From positions 1 through 53,701 of the forward strand of contig CAVFBU010000002.1 of NCBI GenBank assembly GCA_963620725.1: a stretch of DNA of 53,701 bases. Direction: 5' to 3'. Below are positions 16,735-26,165 of this stretch, piece after piece. Position 1 is the stretch's first letter; every line of letters begins with the position of its first letter. This stretch comes from Vescimonas coprocola (GTDB lineage Bacteria > Bacteroidota > Bacteroidia > Bacteroidales > Bacteroidaceae). The notes beneath the pieces were generated by a model. That model worked only from the letters and a program-made list of their open reading frames with translations, was not told the DNA's origin and ran no database searches. The position numbers and the translations under genes were made by a program.

Positions 16735-17667
16735 ATGAAACAGATGATTATAACCACGGTAGCCTTGCTGGCCACCACTAATCTTCAGGCACAGGAAACG
16801 TTCCAGAAGACGTACCAGGAGGTTCTGAAAAACTCGGCTGTCACCCTGCTGTCCCATTCCGACTATCAAGATCGCCCCGATTACCCCACGACCTACTGCA
16901 AGTTCACGGAGTTCCAAGTACCCGTCCGCAACGAGTCCCTCGTCAGTCAGTTGGAGCAGGCTATCCTCAGTGAACAGGACAGTGCCTATTCCTTCTACGT
17001 CAAGAAACCCGATGGCGGCAGGCTGACTCTCAGCAGCTCGACGCGGTATGTCTACGGACCGAACAACGAGTATGCCGTATTGTTGGGTGCGCAGAAGTCC
17101 CACTACTACTACGGTGCCTGCTTCAAGGAGCCGACCGACTCCCTCCGCCGCCATGCCTACCTGTTTGTGTGGTTCAAGGAAGGGAAGCACTTCCACTGCT
17201 ACTATTACCATATCTACGGCAAGAACCCCAACTTCCTCAAGAGCCTGCGACCGCTCGACCGGACTTCAGAGAAGCGTATCGGCAGCCGCCGCGCCACCAT
17301 CTCGGGCAACACCCTGGTGGTGGAGGAATATGACGGCCAAGGAAAATTGAAGAGCCTCAAGTCGGAACCACTGTCCGACGGGGAACAGAAGATCAACAAC
17401 GATGTGGAGTTCATGACGCAGTTTGGACTGCTCCGCGCCGCCTTCCTCGATGCCATCAAGGATGCCGACCAGAAGATGATGCAGGTGGGTATTGCCGGCA
17501 AGATGGTGACACTCTGCAAGAGCCATGGTAACCTGCTGACCGCCGTGGAGCGGCAGACCTGTAAGAAGGCCCTCGCTGACCTTCGTGCCACCGTCGGCAA
17601 GACCCTGCCCGACACCTTCCTCGACGGCATGCTCCTGCAGGCCGCCACCTATCTCGGTGAAGACTAA
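16735..17667 (+). CDS. Secreted hypothetical protein
   Basis: Sec signal ending NLQA|Q; 310-aa ORF with host-like codon usage. Confidence 0.75.
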   Translation: MKQMIITTVALLATTNLQAQETFQKTYQEVLKNSAVTLLSHSDYQDRPDYPTTYCKFTEFQVPVRNESLVSQLEQAILSEQDSAYSFYVKKPDGGRLTLSSSTRYVYGPNNEYAVLLGAQKSHYYYGACFKEPTDSLRRHAYLFVWFKEGKHFHCYYYHIYGKNPNFLKSLRPLDRTSEKRIGSRRATISGNTLVVEEYDGQGKLKSLKSEPLSDGEQKINNDVEFMTQFGLLRAAFLDAIKDADQKMMQVGIAGKMVTLCKSHGNLLTAVERQTCKKALADLRATVGKTLPDTFLDGMLLQAATYLGED

Positions 17668-17726
17668 CCACACTGGAAGACAATGATAAAAACACTCTTA
17701 TATATATAAAAATGTATCTTAGGATA

Positions 17727-19904
17727 ATGAAGAAAAACACCTTGGCAGCCCTGCTGCTCCTCCTGTGCCCGACCATGAAGGCACAGACCGACTCTACCGC
17801 CGTTGCCGGCGACTCCGCCGACATCTACAAGAATATCGGACTGGGCGAACTGACCGTCAGTGCCCAGCGCCAACTGGTGAAGACCCAGGACGACCGCGTC
17901 AGCTACGATGTGACCGCCGACCCCGAGGCCAAGACCAATCCCCTGACGGAGATGCTCAAGAAGGTGCCGTTCGTCACCGTCGAGGCCGACGGCACCATCA
18001 AGGTCAAGGGGTCTACCGACTTCAAGATTTTCCGCAACGGCCGTCCCGACCGTTCCTTCACGAACAACGCCAAGGAGCTGTTCAAGGGCATCCCGGCCAG
18101 TATGGTGAAGCGCATCGAGGTCATCACGGAGCCTGGTGCGAAGTATGATGCCGAGGGACTGGTGGGCATCCTCAACATCGTGATGGATCGGCAGAGCCAG
18201 CTGTCCGGACTGACGGGAACGCTCAGCTCCGCTGCCGGTCTCGGTCGCGCCTCCAATCCCTATAACGGCACGCTCTACCTGACGGGACAGAGTGGTAAGC
18301 TGACCGTTGCCCCATACGTCGGCTGTGCCTTCCAGAAGTGGCGGCAGACCGAGAATGTAGACTATACCTACACGGAAGGCGGCAACCGCTATCAGGCCAC
18401 CAGCCTCACCCGGAACCCCGGCCGTAATGTGTGGTACGGCATTGATGCCAGTCTGGAGCTGGACTCCTGCAACCTCCTCACGCTCGCTGCCAGCGGCTTT
18501 GCCTATAACGTGGGGAGCAAGGGCAACAGCTACAGCCGGCTGGACGATGCTGCCGGCAACGCCATCTATGCCGTGCGCATGAGCGACCGCGACATGGACT
18601 ACCGCTATTTCGACATCGACCTGCAGCTCTCGTACCAGCACAGCTTCCGCAGGAAGGGCGAGACCCTTGCCGTGGACTACCTCTACTCCACCACGCGCTC
18701 CCACAACGACGGCTTCATCGACCTGTCCGACTGCATCAACTACAGCGACTACGACAGCCAGTGGAAGGACAACCGCACCAAGTTCAACGAACACACCCTG
18801 CAGATTGACTACGAGCGACCCTTCGACAGCCACCACTCACTCGATGTGGGCGGTAAGTATGTGTTGCGTCTGAACAACAGCGACAACCTGCGCCGCGAGT
18901 ACCTCGCCGATGCACTGCTGCGCTCGCCTGCCACGAAGTTCGACCACACCACCGACGTGGGAGCCGCCTATGCTGAGTATAAGTACCGCCTTGGCGGACT
19001 GACCGCCGCCGCCGGACTGCGCTACGAGACCTCGCGCATGAAAGGCTCGTGGCCCGACGGCTCGCAGGACGACTTCAGCCGCCGCTTCAACGACCTCGTG
19101 CCCTCTGTGCGTGCCACGTGGCGCATCGGCGACCACCACGCACTGAAGTTAGCCTATAACATGCGGCTCTCCCGTCCTGGCATCAGCTACCTCAACCCGT
19201 TCCGCAGCGAGACACCCACCTCGCTCAGCTACGGCAATCCGCAGTTGGGTACGTCGAAGGCCCACAACATCACGTTAGGCTATAACCTCATGACCGCCAA
19301 GGTGACCTTCAGCCTCAATGCGGCCTACAGCCGCTGCGACGATGCCATCGCCGCCGTGAAATGGGTGGAGGACGGCCGCTTCGTCTCGACATACGACAAC
19401 TTAGGACGGAACAACTACTTCCAACTCGCGCCCTACATCCAGTGGGAAATCACGCCTACCACCAAGTTTACGAACAACAGCACCTTCCGCTGGATGGACA
19501 AGGCCAACGCATCGCAGGGACTCTCCATGTACCGCTGGCAGTTCAATACCTACAACCAGCTGACGCAGAAACTGCCTGCCAAGTTGACGCTCTCCCTGTC
19601 CGCCTATCTCGACTTTTCCACGCCGACCACGCTCTATAGCTACGAACGCACGTGGCAGCAGTACACCGTCTCGCTGCAACGCTCTTTCCTCAAGGACGAC
19701 CGCCTCACCGCCTATCTGCGCGGCCATTACCGCAACGACGAAAGCACCCATTATGTCAAGGGCGACTATGTGGGCATCGGTCGTCAGGATGTGCCCAACT
19801 GGTCTGCCCAGATTGGCTTCTCCTTCCGCTTCGGCAATCTGAAGGCTTCAGTCAAGAAGACCAACAAACAGGTGTCGAATGATGACCTCATGGGGCGGAA
19901 GTGA
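17727..19904 (+). CDS. Outer-membrane beta-barrel / TonB-dependent-receptor-like protein
   Basis: Signal peptide; plug-like MLKKVPFV...RIEVITEPGAKYDAEG..GILNIV; GLRYE; GNPQL; terminal FSFRFG strand. Confidence 0.88.
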   Translation: MKKNTLAALLLLLCPTMKAQTDSTAVAGDSADIYKNIGLGELTVSAQRQLVKTQDDRVSYDVTADPEAKTNPLTEMLKKVPFVTVEADGTIKVKGSTDFKIFRNGRPDRSFTNNAKELFKGIPASMVKRIEVITEPGAKYDAEGLVGILNIVMDRQSQLSGLTGTLSSAAGLGRASNPYNGTLYLTGQSGKLTVAPYVGCAFQKWRQTENVDYTYTEGGNRYQATSLTRNPGRNVWYGIDASLELDSCNLLTLAASGFAYNVGSKGNSYSRLDDAAGNAIYAVRMSDRDMDYRYFDIDLQLSYQHSFRRKGETLAVDYLYSTTRSHNDGFIDLSDCINYSDYDSQWKDNRTKFNEHTLQIDYERPFDSHHSLDVGGKYVLRLNNSDNLRREYLADALLRSPATKFDHTTDVGAAYAEYKYRLGGLTAAAGLRYETSRMKGSWPDGSQDDFSRRFNDLVPSVRATWRIGDHHALKLAYNMRLSRPGISYLNPFRSETPTSLSYGNPQLGTSKAHNITLGYNLMTAKVTFSLNAAYSRCDDAIAAVKWVEDGRFVSTYDNLGRNNYFQLAPYIQWEITPTTKFTNNSTFRWMDKANASQGLSMYRWQFNTYNQLTQKLPAKLTLSLSAYLDFSTPTTLYSYERTWQQYTVSLQRSFLKDDRLTAYLRGHYRNDESTHYVKGDYVGIGRQDVPNWSAQIGFSFRFGNLKASVKKTNKQVSNDDLMGRK

Positions 19905-19907
19905 GGG

Positions 19908-19950
19908 CTTTCTTTTAATGGGAATGGATGGGAGTTGATGGGAGTTGATG
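19908..19950 (+). repeat. Array A: ATGGGA units with 10-bp period; left arm of a 27-bp inverted repeat
   Basis: CTTTCTTTTA ATGGGAATGG ATGGGAGTTG ATGGGAGTTG ATG. Confidence 0.9.
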
Positions 19951-20000
19951 TTTTTTCTGCATTCGCTGCTCCAAAATTTGCTGGTTAGCTCATTTTGTTG

Positions 20001-20008
20001 TATCTTTG
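20001..20008 (+). promoter_or_regulatory. -7 promoter element of the four-helix-bundle gene, inside the inverted repeat
   Basis: TATCTTTG, with TTTG at 19977-19980 (20-nt spacer). Confidence 0.8.
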
Positions 20009-20020
20009 CAGTCGCATAGT

Positions 20021-20066
20021 TCCCATAATTCCCATCCCCCTCCCATCCATTCCCATCAAAAGAAAG
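20021..20066 (-). repeat. Array B: four TCCCAT units in the 5' UTR; right arm of the 27-bp inverted repeat
   Basis: TCCCAT at 20021, 20030, 20041 and 20051. 20040-20066 is the reverse complement of 19908-19934 at 26/27 positions. Confidence 0.9.
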
Positions 20067-20071
20067 AAAAA

Positions 20072-20698
20072 ATGCCTTCCCCCAGCAATTTCCTCGTTCA
20101 AAAGGGCGACTACAAACGCCTCATCGCCTTTCGGAAGTCGGAGTGCATCTATGACATCACCGCCTACTTCATCGAGCACTACCTGCCGAAGATTGGCGAC
20201 CGTACTGTAGATCAGATGAAACAGGCGGCGCGTTCGGGCAAGCAGAACATCGCCGAGGGCAACGAGACTGGCACGACCTCTATGGAGGCCTGCATCAAAC
20301 TGGTGAACGTGGCGAAGGCGAGTCTCAAGGAGTTGCAGGAGGACTACGAGGACTATCTGCGCAACCACGGCCAGCAGATATGGGGCGTGGACAGCCCACA
20401 GTGCCGGAATGCTCGCCTCTGGTGTAAGGAACACTCGAATCCCTCCGACTATATCCGTGTCTGCCATTTGCGTGACGACATCACCGTGGCCAATATTGCA
20501 CTGGTGCTCATCCACCAGACCGACTACCTGTTGCGTCGGTTGCTGGAGAAATTCAAGGCCGAATTCTTGGAGCATGGCGGCATCAAGGAACAGATGTCGC
20601 AGGCTCGGCGCAGCTGGCGGGAAGAGCATGGGATGGGGTATCTTAATGGGAAGAGTGGGAATAATGGGAGGAATGGGAATGATGGGATTTTGCGCTGA
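20072..20698 (+). CDS. Four-helix-bundle protein (23S rRNA IVP / bAvd-like) with suffix domain
   Basis: YKRLIAFRKS..IYDIT..F, DRTVDQMKQAARSGKQNIAEG, KLVNVAKASLKELQEDYEDYLR, FLEHGGIKEQM. Confidence 0.88.
   Translation: MPSPSNFLVQKGDYKRLIAFRKSECIYDITAYFIEHYLPKIGDRTVDQMKQAARSGKQNIAEGNETGTTSMEACIKLVNVAKASLKELQEDYEDYLRNHGQQIWGVDSPQCRNARLWCKEHSNPSDYIRVCHLRDDITVANIALVLIHQTDYLLRRLLEKFKAEFLEHGGIKEQMSQARRSWREEHGMGYLNGKSGNNGRNGNDGILR
20628..20689 (+). repeat. Array C: ATGGGA units with 9-bp period in the last codons of the four-helix-bundle gene
   Basis: (A/G)TGGGA at 20628, 20646, 20655, 20664, 20673 and 20682; encodes NGK-SGN-NGR-NGN-DGI. Confidence 0.88.
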
Positions 20699-20729
20699 CC
20701 GCACCATTCTTAAGACAGCCTATTGCAAG

Positions 20730-20760
20730 GAGGAGTGCCAAGCGTTGCTCGGCACTCCTC
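20730..20760. terminator. GC-rich hairpin between convergent genes
   Basis: GAGGAGTGCC/GGCACTCCTC 10-bp stem. Confidence 0.6.
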
Positions 20761-20816
20761 GCGCAATTAGTAACTAACCAATTTTACTAACTGATTTGCT
20801 TTTAGGCAATGAGATG

Positions 20817-22481
20817 TTACTTCTTGATCTTGATGACTGGCGCTATGTTGTTGAGGCGTTGGGTCGGGAGGGTGACGACGAGGCCGTCGGCCGTGCGGTG
20901 GAACGGAATCTTGCCGTAGCCGAGCAGTTCCACGCGCGAAATTTTCTTGGGATAGAGCGTGCTGTTCAAGGCCAGTGCCTTGACCGTCACCTGAGTCTCT
21001 TTGGGCCATGCCAACAGCGTGACATAGAGAGCCTTATTGGTCTGTGTGAAGCGTTTCTCCTCCGCTGTGGCATTGGTGTATGCCCCCTCGTTGAATCCCT
21101 GTGCGTTGATTTTGATGTCTGAGTCAGCTATCGGCCCCTCGCCGAAGATTTTCCAGGGGCGCGTGTCGTAGATGGCTTCCTTGTTGATGGCCATCCAGTC
21201 GCCGAACTCGTTGAGAATCTTCTCCTCCTTCTCGTCGAAGGTGCCGTCGGCGCGCAGGGGTACACTCAGCAGCAGGTTGCCGTTCTTGCTGACGATGTCC
21301 ACCAACAGTTTGGCGACCGATGCCGCCGACTTATAGCGGTTGTTCTCATAGACGGACGTGTTGTAGTGCCAGTCGCCCAAACACGAGCACGACTGCCAAG
21401 GCTCCGGCAGAATCTGGTTGGGTGCTCCGCGCTCCACGTCCCATACCAACGCCTTGCGCTGGTTCTCATCGAGAATCTTGCAGAGCATGACAGCCTCCAA
21501 CTTCCCTTTGTGGACGGCCATATTGTGGTTGTAGAAGTGGGCCGCAATCTTGAGACCCGCATCGCTGATGGGGTAGAACGGGGCTACCGTCACGTCGAAG
21601 TAGATGAGGTCGGGGTTATATCGGTTGATGGCATCCACCGTGCGGTTGTAGAAATTGGTGACATACTGCTGTGTCGGCATGGCCACCCCGTTGCCCCATG
21701 CCCACTGGCGGTGGATCATGCCATCGGCCCAGCTGCCCTCGCTCATCGGGTGGTTCTGTGCATAGAGGTCCTGCGGGTCGTAGCCCTCCCACCACTTGCC
21801 TTTGCCGTCCGCTTTGGTCAGTGTGCCATCGTAGCGGATGCCCATCTTGTCGCCGTTGCGGTCATACCGCTGTGACGGCTCGTACCATGTCCACGCGTGG
21901 TCGGCATGGAAGCTGATGCCGAAGGGCAGTCCCTGCTTCTTGGCCGCTGCAGCCCATCCGGCAAGGATGTCGCGCTTGGGTCCGATGTTCCGGGAGTTCC
22001 ACGGCTGGTATTTCGAGTCCCAGAGGTCGAAGTTGTCGTGGTGGTTGCCCAGGGCGAAGAAATACTGCGCCCCGATCTTCTTGTAGAACGCCACTAACTT
22101 GTCGGGGTTCCAGTGCTCCGCCTTGAACAGCGGCAGGATGTCTTTGAAGCCCACCTCTGAGGGATGACCATAGTGTGCCACATGGTATTTGTACTTGCCG
22201 TTGCCCTCCATGTACATCTCTCGTGCCATCCAGTCGCCCGAGCCTTCCACGCACTGCGGTCCCCAGTGTGCCCAGATGCCGAACTTGGCATTTCTGAACC
22301 ATTCGGGAGTCTGGTAGTCCGTCTCCAGTGATTCCCAAGTAGGTTTGAACTTTCCGGTTTGCATCGGTTCGTCCGCTTCGGACACCGGCACTTGGTAGTC
22401 CTGTGCCTGAAGTCCGTTCGACACGGCGAAGAGCAGTCCTGCAGCCAATGCCGTTTTCTTCATGAATAAACAGGTTTTCAT
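20817..22481 (-). CDS. GH29 alpha-L-fucosidase-family glycosidase (possibly alpha-L-galactosidase)
   Basis: PEWFRNAKFGIWAHWG, HHDNFDLWDS, LIYFD, LVDIVSKNGNLLLSV; signal peptide. Start may be 22481 or 22463; promoter box on the minus strand at 22515-22522. Confidence 0.92.
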   Translation of the reverse strand: MKTCLFMKKTALAAGLLFAVSNGLQAQDYQVPVSEADEPMQTGKFKPTWESLETDYQTPEWFRNAKFGIWAHWGPQCVEGSGDWMAREMYMEGNGKYKYHVAHYGHPSEVGFKDILPLFKAEHWNPDKLVAFYKKIGAQYFFALGNHHDNFDLWDSKYQPWNSRNIGPKRDILAGWAAAAKKQGLPFGISFHADHAWTWYEPSQRYDRNGDKMGIRYDGTLTKADGKGKWWEGYDPQDLYAQNHPMSEGSWADGMIHRQWAWGNGVAMPTQQYVTNFYNRTVDAINRYNPDLIYFDVTVAPFYPISDAGLKIAAHFYNHNMAVHKGKLEAVMLCKILDENQRKALVWDVERGAPNQILPEPWQSCSCLGDWHYNTSVYENNRYKSAASVAKLLVDIVSKNGNLLLSVPLRADGTFDEKEEKILNEFGDWMAINKEAIYDTRPWKIFGEGPIADSDIKINAQGFNEGAYTNATAEEKRFTQTNKALYVTLLAWPKETQVTVKALALNSTLYPKKISRVELLGYGKIPFHRTADGLVVTLPTQRLNNIAPVIKIKK

Positions 22482-22562
22482 AATTATAGTATATGTTTTT
22501 GTTAAATTCTGCTGCAAAGGTACAGCATTTTCCTCTACAAAGGTTGGATAATCTTTGTTAAG

Positions 22563-22577
22563 AATAGTACAAAATTG
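22563..22577 (+). promoter_or_regulatory. Candidate AraC-family operator, copy 1
   Basis: AATAGTACAAAATTG; 14/15 identical to 23505-23519. Confidence 0.5.
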
Positions 22578-22648
22578 ATTTTTTAAGGAAAATGACGGGT
22601 GTTTCTGAAAAATAATGCTTACTTTTGCCCCAGAAACCTAAAACGGAT

Positions 22649-23506
22649 ATGGACATACCTATAGAATCGCTGAATTTTCAAATGCTTAACGTGGGCTTCG
22701 CCAGGCATGACGGTGACTGGAACTGGAAAAATGTCGTGTCGCCGTTCACGCGGGTGTATCTCGTGACGGAAGGGGAAGCCCGGCTCTGTCTGCCCGATCA
22801 GGTTGTCTGTCTGAGGCCGAATCACCTGTACATCATCCCCGCCCATACCATGCACAGCTATGAGTGTTCGGGTCGGTTCAGCCATTATTACCTGCACTTC
22901 TTCGAAGGCTACAAGAAGGAAACCGACGTGTTCGACTTCTATGAATTTCCCGTGGAGGTGGATGCCGAACCGATGGACGAGTCCCTATTATATAATATGT
23001 GTAGCCGCCATCCCGAGGCCGAGCTGCCGGCCAGCGACCCCACGTCGTACGACTATATGAGCAAGTTCATTGGCTATGTGCGCCGTTACAACGAGCTGAC
23101 GCTCGATGCCAAGCTGGAGCTACGCGGAAGCATCCTGCTGCTCTTCTCTCGTTTCGTGAAAAAGGCAACGCCACGGGTGTGGACGAAAGACAAACGGCTA
23201 TCCAAGGTTCTCACCTATATACACAACCATATTTATGATACCATCTGTCTGGACACCCTGGCTTCGTTGGCCTGCGTGACCAAGTCGCATTTCGTGCGCC
23301 TCTTTGTCAAGACCATCGGGATGCCCCCGTTGCAATATATCAACAGGAAGAAGATCGATAAGGCCGAGCTTCTGCTGATTACGGAAGAATCTCCCATCAA
23401 GGAAATCGCTTACGCCTTGGGCTATAGCGACCAGTCTTACTTTATCCGCCTTTTCAAGAAGACCACGGGTATGACTCCGATGGCCTATCGGAAGAATATG
23501 CGATAA
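22649..23506 (+). CDS. AraC-family transcriptional regulator
   Basis: N-terminal cupin; C-terminal double HTH (IKEIAYALGYSDQSYFIRLFKKTTGMTP). Confidence 0.95.
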   Translation: MDIPIESLNFQMLNVGFARHDGDWNWKNVVSPFTRVYLVTEGEARLCLPDQVVCLRPNHLYIIPAHTMHSYECSGRFSHYYLHFFEGYKKETDVFDFYEFPVEVDAEPMDESLLYNMCSRHPEAELPASDPTSYDYMSKFIGYVRRYNELTLDAKLELRGSILLLFSRFVKKATPRVWTKDKRLSKVLTYIHNHIYDTICLDTLASLACVTKSHFVRLFVKTIGMPPLQYINRKKIDKAELLLITEESPIKEIAYALGYSDQSYFIRLFKKTTGMTPMAYRKNMR

Positions 23507-24975: not shown

Positions 24976-25719
24976 ATGATTATCGATGCACACAGCCACC
25001 TTTGGCTGAAACAAAACACCATGGTGGACGGACAGCCCATCCGCACGCTGTCGCCCAACGCTTCGCGCTCGCTGTTCTTCGGTGAGGAGGTGCAGATGCT
25101 GCCACCATTCATGACCGACGGCAGGAACACCGCCGAGGTGTTCCTCTCCAACATGGACTATGCGCAGGTGGGGGGAGCGGTCGTGGTACAAGAAATCATT
25201 GACGGCAACCAGAACGCCTATCTTGCCGAGGTGCAGCACGCCTATCCCGACCGCTTCTGTTGTTTGGGTATGGCCACTGACGTGGAGTCGGCGCGGCAGG
25301 CCATCCGCATGGGACTGCGCGGCTTGGCGCTTCCTGCGCACCGGCTTCTGAAACAGTCGCTGCTGGACATGCTGCCTGTGTTCAAGTTGTTGGAGGTACA
25401 GAATCTCGTCCTTTCCGTCTGTCTGGCCGACGACGAGCGGCAGATTGGCGAGATGGCCGAGGTCATCGCGGAGTGTCCGAAGCTGCGAGTGGCTGTTGGC
25501 CATTTCGGTATGCCCACCACGGCCTCGTTCCGACAGCAGGTGATGCTGGCCGACAGGAGCGACCGAGTGCGCATAGAGTCTGGCGGTATCACGTGGCTCT
25601 ACAACGCCGAGTTCTATCCCTTCCCTACCGCCGTTCGGCGCATCCGCGAGGCGGCAGACTGGGTCGGCGAGGACAAACTGATGTGGGGCAGCGACTATCC
25701 GCGCACCATCACAGCCATC
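24976..25719 (+). pseudogene. Amidohydrolase-family sugar lactonase, C-terminally truncated
   Basis: IIDAHSH, VGHFG and LMWGSDYP motifs. Similarity stops right after SDYPRTITAI and the frame runs on into unrelated sequence to 26133. Confidence 0.75.
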
Positions 25720-26120
25720 TCCACAATCAGGAACTCCGGGTCATCGACATCGAAGACCCGAAACCGCTCGCAGCAGGCGAGGTGCTGCTCCAACTGCAAT
25801 ACGTTGGCTTCTGCGGCTCAGACCTCAACACGTTCCGGGGACGCAACACCATGGCACTCAACCCCATCATCCCTGGCCATGAGGTCGAGGTGGCGTTCCA
25901 GACGAAGCTCTTCGTGCAGAAGGAACTCGACATCCGGGGCTCGCGCAATGCCACGCCACAGGACTTCCGTGCCGTCATCCGCTATCTGGAAAGAGGCACT
26001 TGTCCGACGGACCAGCTCATCACGAAGGTCATCGCTCCTGATGAGGCTATGGACACTATGCAGTGGTGGGACAAGCATCCCGGCAAGGTGTTCCGCATCC
26101 TCGTGGAGTGGGGCAGGTGA
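25719..26120 (+). pseudogene. Remnant of a Zn-dependent MDR dehydrogenase (L-galactonate dehydrogenase-like): no start codon, large in-frame internal deletion
   Basis: GEVLL..YVGFCGSDL..F...IPGHEV joined directly to the C-terminal KELDIRGSRNA..DF..VI..L. 133 codons; structural-Zn and Rossmann regions absent. Confidence 0.82.
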
Positions 26121-26128
26121 ATATGTCA

Positions 26129-26165
26129 TTTAGCCACCGTAAGCAAGTCACTTACGGTGGCTAAA
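26129..26165. terminator. 15-bp perfect hairpin ending the sugar operon
   Basis: TTTAGCCACCGTAAG-7 nt-CTTACGGTGGCTAAA. Confidence 0.75.

Follow-up and report, generated by a model that had tools for sequence, protein, structure and literature searches.

A four-helix-bundle protein gene and its enclosing complementary nonamer arrays are conserved as a unit outside rRNA

The question raised by this locus is why a gene of the S23p/IVP family should lie, with protein genes on both sides, among three arrays of one short word and its complement, and whether gene and arrays belong together. The window, meaning the whole stretch of 53,701 nt that was analysed (GCA_963620725.1, contig CAVFBU010000002.1, forward strand; the genome is labelled G000), contains 35 matches to ATGGGA or TCCCAT where shuffling predicts 26.6, and 12 of these fall within the 770 nt from 19918 to 20687.

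Organization of the locus and its protein

The upstream neighbour is an outer-membrane beta-barrel gene (17712–19904, forward strand; PF14905, 220 bits), a host gene outside the cassette described below, and no terminator was seen between its stop codon and the first array. Array A (19908–19950, forward), the left arm of the A:B hairpin and a local feature, is purine-rich and built of ATGGGA words with a 10-nt period, starting at 19918, 19928 and 19938. It is followed by a piece of a dispersed repeat (19951–19983, forward), a predicted Bacteroidetes primary-sigma promoter (19977–20008, forward; −33 TTTG and −7 TATCTTTG, with a predicted start near 20013), and array B with an A-rich leader (20021–20066, forward), in which TCCCAT words start at 20021, 20030, 20041 and 20051 with spacings of 9, 11 and 10. 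The ORF for the 208-residue four-helix-bundle suffix-domain protein extends from its ATG at 20072 to 20698 (forward), and overlaps array C (20628–20689, forward; ATGGGA words at 20628, 20646, 20664, 20673 and 20682, 9-nt period). Arrays B and C are the left and right ends of the conserved cassette. A repeat search confirmed the positions that a first-pass annotation had given for the three arrays, and the complementarity of B to both A and C. To the right, a GC-rich hairpin (20724–20768, no strand assigned), recognized as an inverted repeat and by folding, lies between the ORF and a convergent alpha-L-fucosidase (GH29) gene (20817–22517, reverse strand; PF01120, 281 bits), also a host gene; the hairpin is probably a two-way terminator, and is retained with changed bases in the homologous locus L052 despite different downstream DNA there. 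Elsewhere in the window, at 24976–26130, an amidohydrolase match within the fucose-use cluster stops at residue 244, and another frame apparently contains two joined pieces of a zinc dehydrogenase; this looks like a deletion or misassembly in the cluster.

The protein scores above the curated cut-offs of TIGR04258 (73 bits, cut-off 40) and TIGR02436 (25.8 bits, cut-off 24), and matches PF05635 (23S_rRNA_IVP) with 27.7 bits and an E-value of 3.4e-6, below the gathering score of 33.8. It contains the R-S-x-x-Q-N-I-x-E-G motif described in PMC3936711, which also places family genes inside cas operons; PF05635 and Avd are homologous (PMC10053308), and the available text of PMC8700078 and PMC5524665 merely lists the gene. 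A structure model built from a 37-row alignment (pLDDT 83.6) resembles solved structures of PF05635 family members, and is closer to Xcc0516 (2GSC; Z 15.8, rmsd 1.6, 111 aligned) and BT_0352 (2RLD; Z 13.1) than to Avd (8UB7, Z 12.1; 4DWL, Z 11.7; 10% identity), with unrelated helix bundles scoring Z 11.9 and below. A PDB sequence search with the single protein gave no match, a profile search found 2GSC at an E-value of 0.006, and Foldseek ranked 2GSC first, although with no E-value below 0.001. The initial assignment to an Avd/IVP-like four-helix-bundle family is thus upheld by both TIGR models and by the fold. The model is an all-helical bundle, and neither HMM nor structure comparison gave a transposase-like fold or family match.

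The ORF is the sole TIGR02436 match in G000, and the family is present in 95 of 201 genomes of the genus. It is under purifying selection, with a median dN/dS of 0.077 against 72 close homologues (dS is saturated in 33 of the pairs). Residues 194–208, the last 15 or so, are encoded by read-through of array C; because this tail is predicted to be disordered and the stop position varies, we rejected the notion that it is a functional peptide.

Conservation and movement of the B–ORF–C unit

The comparison covers 189 loci, the present one among them, which clustering at 93% nucleotide identity reduces to 130; the close homologues number 73 (at least 65% protein identity), 70 of them with enough flank. 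We scored TC[CTA]CA in the 70 nt before the ATG (two or more words) and TG[GAT]GA at the 3′ end. TCCCAT-type words precede the ATG in 61 of the 70, ATGGGA-type words lie at the 3′ end in 67, and 60 carry both; the reverse orientation is seen in 0/70 before the ATG and 4/70 at the 3′ end, and none of 1131 mechanically called long ORFs of G000 bears both word sets. The period is mostly 9 nt with a median of four units per array, and array C is wholly inside the ORF in 48 of 65 loci, partly inside in 8, and after the stop in 9. In contrast, an A-type array is present in just 7 of 63 close homologues. The conserved unit is therefore B–ORF–C, and the arrangement of three arrays that the first-pass annotation had taken for an RNA-switch module is not a conserved module of the family.

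The same annotation had proposed to look in homologues for complementary flanking arrays with compensatory changes; the arrays themselves are present in most close homologues. Pairing of B with C beats shuffles (z < −3) at 39/69 close and 10/56 distant loci and pairing of A with B at 7/62 close and 15/55 distant loci, the latter being the stronger in 5 of 62 close loci. The mean energy of B:C own pairs is −46.1 compared to −44.5 for pairs drawn across loci (p 0.01, in a sample whose related members are not independent), and at 9 of 69 close loci the own arm partner ranks within the top tenth, so that compensation specific to the arms is weak among the close homologues. A G-U wobble test was mixed: C-to-T changes are in excess in B (odds 1.7), T positions show no such excess, and mismatching A accounts for 10%. 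The unit composition of B and of reverse-complemented C is nearly identical.

The distant homologues use other words (CTAGT, CTATA, TCCGG and GCCT), with an array in 50 of 56 and an inverted pair in 26 of 56, compared to 311 and 13 of 1092 in the control. Their hairpins lie wholly upstream (14/56), wholly downstream (14/56), or bracket the gene (12/56), a variation more easily reconciled with binding sites than with a stem of fixed position, and many lineages have near-palindromic words and arrays on one side of the gene only. The general layout is a purine array, a pyrimidine array, the gene, a purine array and a pyrimidine array, with subsets retained; the present locus keeps the first three arrays. 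At L141 an identical hairpin is found on both sides of the gene, and at L072 the stretch formed by array A and its 3′ flank duplicates the one formed by array C and its flank, as the integration of a circle would produce.

The surroundings of the cassette are diverse, with about 47 downstream-neighbour clusters among 62 close loci with a neighbour (a rough call from the longest nearby ORF). The beta-barrel orthologue at 92% possesses the A-to-C stretch, and those at 79% and 70% have neither the three arrays nor the ORF behind their stop codons, and other genes lie downstream of them; a search for a strictly empty spacer flanked by the beta-barrel and GH29 genes found none, and 400 genus genomes yielded only 34–44% paralogues of the beta-barrel gene. 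At the argG–argC site (the genes being identified from their sequences) B–ORF–C occupies 3 of 14 loci, 10 contain another small gene, presumably PspC-like, and one is empty, with a 25-nt spacer; arrays are present only in the filled loci. A second site with 17 loci has 3 filled, 6 unfilled and 8 with one flank only, and three short unfilled spacers are devoid of array words. No target-site duplication was seen by eye at these two sites. The gene and both arrays are gained or lost together, in keeping with the mobile unit first suspected at this locus; they are inherited as one unit, landing in many unrelated spacers. Salinivirgaceae-labelled copies and Prevotellaceae copies share one clade (98/96, in a midpoint-rooted tree without a one-clade test), and the gene and its enclosing arrays travel between gut and rumen bacteria. 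The protein had no match in a phage collection, and one 43% match in a plasmid search.

At a number of loci (L003, L139, L057, L145, L160 and L137; L147, L152, L191 and L078) the cassette follows a truncated methylase-like start and is itself followed by a nuclease. In some subclades it lies behind a dam-like gene of which about the first 50 codons are left and is followed by DpnI (PF06044); in others it lies behind a cut cytosine-methylase-like start and is followed by an HNH_2 gene. The junctions read TTCAT/TTCCC, resembling the B unit by eye, with several different break points, as if the methylase had been replaced by the nuclease.

Pairing, solo arrays and competing explanations

Arrays A and B contain a 27-nt, 96% inverted repeat (19908–19934 and 20040–20066), whose predicted hairpin (−72.7 kcal/mol, z −7.65) leaves exactly 5 unpaired A ahead of the ATG, precisely the burial of the leader described in the first-pass annotation. 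In silico, a read-through transcript (19860–20775) has 39 expected A:B pairs and 0.3 B:C pairs, and the gene's own RNA, folded from 20014, has 37 expected B:C pairs, reproducing the two folds proposed earlier; folded from the predicted promoter start, B:C encloses the ORF (z −3.72). The loop between A and B holds two features absent from that earlier account. One is the promoter, which matches the Bacteroidetes consensus of PMC6847099; TTTG and TATCTTTGCAGTCGC are kept at the orthologous locus L226, and forward boxes are also found in L175, L072 and L085 (reverse boxes were sought in G000 only). The other, in the 5′ part of the loop, is the dispersed repeat, which matches 16 other places in G000 (on contigs C5, C12, C20, C29, C32, C35, C39, C48, C69, C75, C80, C91, C93, C97, C108 and C114). 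Most copies end in a TAnnTTTG-like box just 5′ of a gene; the repeat is a candidate mobile promoter element, and the loop promoter is derived from it. An Rfam scan of 17000–23500 gave no rRNA, no family at the gathering level, and a single weak miRNA-model match far below threshold.

Arrays are also found apart from the gene. Of 200 genus genomes, 28 show the ATGGGA triplet pattern, and 22 of these 28 have the gene; two other nonamer patterns are accompanied by the gene in 21/27 and 14/15 of the genomes bearing them. The reversed-pattern control was not blank (15 genomes matched, 14 with the gene), and was therefore counted as a third word family. Each of the three patterns is enriched among genomes with the gene; for the three together, 44 of 55 array-bearing genomes carry the gene compared to 50 of 145 without arrays, kin not being independent and many genomes being incomplete; in the other 11 of the 55 no gene was detected with this query. 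The first-pass annotation held that scattered arrays unlinked to the family would count against it: scattered they are, but not unlinked. Six genomes have ten or more RGSCYWAT words at the gene, and five of these show that pattern and none the ATGGGA pattern; in G105 arrays of another word outnumber those of its gene's word.

Locally, 25 of 30 listed array loci are without a profile match within their 1.6–3 kb, and none of 40 further dispersed sites, picked among those listed first for 7 array-rich genomes, had a family gene within 1.6–3 kb, with the caveat that short, distant members could escape the profile. Among 65 solo sites, 28 have a pyrimidine-type array before an ATG, 2 a purine-type array and 3 both, 12 are inside an open frame, 5 are A:B-type hairpins, and 15 are other. 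Array B alone could, by analogy with the Xanthomonas heptamers, follow a general pyrimidine-before-start rule; array C runs against the general bias, because 28 of 29 cassettes with a close co-oriented next gene keep the purine array after the ORF. The solo TCCCA arrays of G000 are at C39:10326–10366, C7:29880–29929, C31:1972–2057 and C72:11395–11417; judged by eye, that on C39 translates as the hydrophobic part of an apparent lipoprotein signal peptide and that on C7 sits within an infB-like gene. Nonamer arrays often adjoin 7-nt arrays (AGTGAAG, AGATGGT), as at L250, L268, L279, L282, L261 and L267.

Several explanations of the arrays have to be weighed. That A:B and B:C pairing constitute a selected, conserved device setting expression by transcript origin accords with the two exclusive folded states, with the promoter between A and B, and with the private variants shared by A and B of G000, both of which differ together from L226, which keeps its own A:B hairpin (z −7.1). 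We nonetheless consider it distinctly improbable, given the rarity of A and of loci in which A:B is the stronger pairing, the lack of an Rfam family at the gathering level, the similar hairpins that occur without the gene, and the fact that matching arms can also come from conversion between inverted repeats. Alternatively, A and B could flank an invertible promoter that drives the gene in a phase-variable manner, and as inverted repeats they do enclose a consensus promoter; but the orientation is the same in L226, the boxes are forward in L175, L072 and L085, there is no recombinase among the 36 window ORFs scanned, and the arms are built of the family-wide repeat word, all of which make this very unlikely.

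If the arrays were DNA binding sites (operators, or nucleoid or recombination sites), their inversion would reflect binding geometry and RNA pairing would be a by-product. The near-palindromic words and one-sided arrays of many lineages, a genome-wide word that follows the resident gene, and the similar composition of B and reverse-complemented C could be so explained, and we regard this as unlikely rather than negligible: the solo arrays are of pyrimidine type on the message (28 versus 2), which points to RNA, as do the RNase III result in Coxiella (PMC4990558) and the RNA templates on which the closest characterised relative works (PMC6182149). A further proposal is that the nonamers are independent simple repeats, arising by slippage and possibly forming G-quadruplexes, that pile up beside recently inserted dispensable genes, the protein being unrelated. 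Dispersed heptamers of a similar kind are published as G4 formers (PMC4692102), solo arrays are common and gene-free, four other arrays of G000 lie away from the gene, and the median is four units. This is nevertheless improbable, since empty sites are without arrays, 60 of 70 homologues but no control ORF carry both word sets, a four-tract G4 motif (four G3 tracts, loops of 1–7 nt) is present in only 28 of 70 C arrays, and the association with the gene holds for three different words. Finally, the protein has an Avd-like fold and no other TIGR02436 match accompanies it in G000, so that it might serve as an orphan Avd, in trans, for the genome's one reverse transcriptase, a 415-aa protein giving the only RVT_1 match (C76:9508–10197, L299). 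A 210-aa ORF beside that gene resembles, we presume, a DGR target, and contig C76 has no TIGR02436 match. The closer relationship to Xcc0516 and BT_0352, the 10% identity to Avd, the absence (by eye) of reverse transcriptases among the listed nearest neighbours of close homologues, and the arrays, which are left unexplained, render this role the least credible.

Known systems and a proposed cassette

We found no description of a gene-plus-array cassette outside rRNA in open-licence papers or bioRxiv main texts. In RAYT/REP systems a single gene lies between copies of its own repeat, and carrier genomes also contain many scattered solo copies; the cassette differs in being without an HUH nuclease fold and in using tandem words rather than one conserved palindrome. 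An IS, MITE or RAYT transposable element was rejected, with no transposase domain and no target-site duplication seen at two sites. In the IVS of Coxiella burnetii, heptamer repeats precede the S23p ORF inside a stem, and RNase III cuts there (PMC4990558). That element and the cassette share a protein superfamily, a terminal stem enclosing the ORF, short tandem repeats of varying number just 5′ of the start codon, and a sporadic, horizontally spread distribution. The cassette differs in being outside rRNA, in its 9-nt rather than 7-nt units, in having its own predicted promoter here, and in its longer protein with a TIGR04258 suffix; its ORF is under strong purifying selection, whereas that of Coxiella is reported to be decaying (PMC4990558). 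The cassette thus has the terminal inverted repeats around an S23p-type ORF expected of an rRNA IVS (a predicted B:C stem, with both word types in 60/70 homologues), but protein genes lie on both sides, and an rRNA intervening sequence proper was rejected for want of rRNA in 17000–23500.

A DGR was also rejected. Avd is a positively charged pentameric barrel needed with the reverse transcriptase on RNA (PMC6182149), and has the same fold; however, there is no adjacent reverse transcriptase among the 36 window ORFs scanned, and no long repeat was seen in 19500–21200, where a TR/VR pair was looked for. The remark in the first-pass annotation that neither rRNA nor reverse transcriptase is present here therefore stands. 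Xcc0516 and BT_0352 provide the best fold matches, and the protein has the motif of the TIGR04258/TIGR02436 family; what was retrieved on this family does not mention flanking nonamer arrays. The dispersed G-rich heptamers of Xanthomonas and Nostoc are similarly intergenic, of about four units and often in inverted pairs, with C-rich arrays before starts and G-rich ones after stops. They have 7-nt units and are explained as G-quadruplexes, and the available text of PMC4692102, which reports 6–9-nt bacterial tandem repeats to be little studied, invokes no such gene and no link to a four-helix-bundle gene.

Our preferred reading, held tentatively at a probability of about 0.45, is that B–ORF–C is a small mobile cassette, an mRNA-level counterpart of the ORF-bearing 23S rRNA IVS. 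The protein, which probably recognises the repeat word of its own cassette, would form a ring of the Avd/Xcc0516 type and bind the nonamer of its lineage (six conserved plus three variable positions), of which each array has about four. Whenever the ORF is not being translated, the B:C stem of its RNA would close over it and offer a double-strand substrate to host RNase III, limiting the cassette's own expression, and the arrays would supply micro-homology for recombination into new sites, solo arrays being its footprints. We infer the ring binding, the action of RNase III on B:C, and the array-mediated recombination. Here a third array and a promoter-bearing repeat would have been added or kept, so that transcripts running on from the beta-barrel gene would form the A:B hairpin and mask the A-rich leader; leader structure reduces initiation in Bacteroidetes according to the literature, and such masking is plausible at this locus, although not conserved in the family.

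In the way it would work the cassette resembles an ORF-bearing intervening sequence, but it is neither an rRNA IVS nor a DGR. A wider and rather doubtful possibility is that these four-helix-bundle proteins act in trans for selfish elements of an undescribed class: each protein lineage would read its own 7–9-nt word, move the bracketed cassette (sometimes with DpnI or HNH cargo in place of a methylase) with no known transposase, and seed orphan arrays in spacers and inside genes of many bacteria, and the rRNA IVS would be the special case in which rRNA was the landing site. Outside this locus the three-array switch is of little consequence. The family, by contrast, is very common and has solved structures, with no function assigned outside DGRs; the link between gene and repeats offers a named ligand, swappable pairs of word and protein, and filled and empty sites, and therefore opens to direct test both what the S23p/IVP family does and where rRNA intervening sequences come from.
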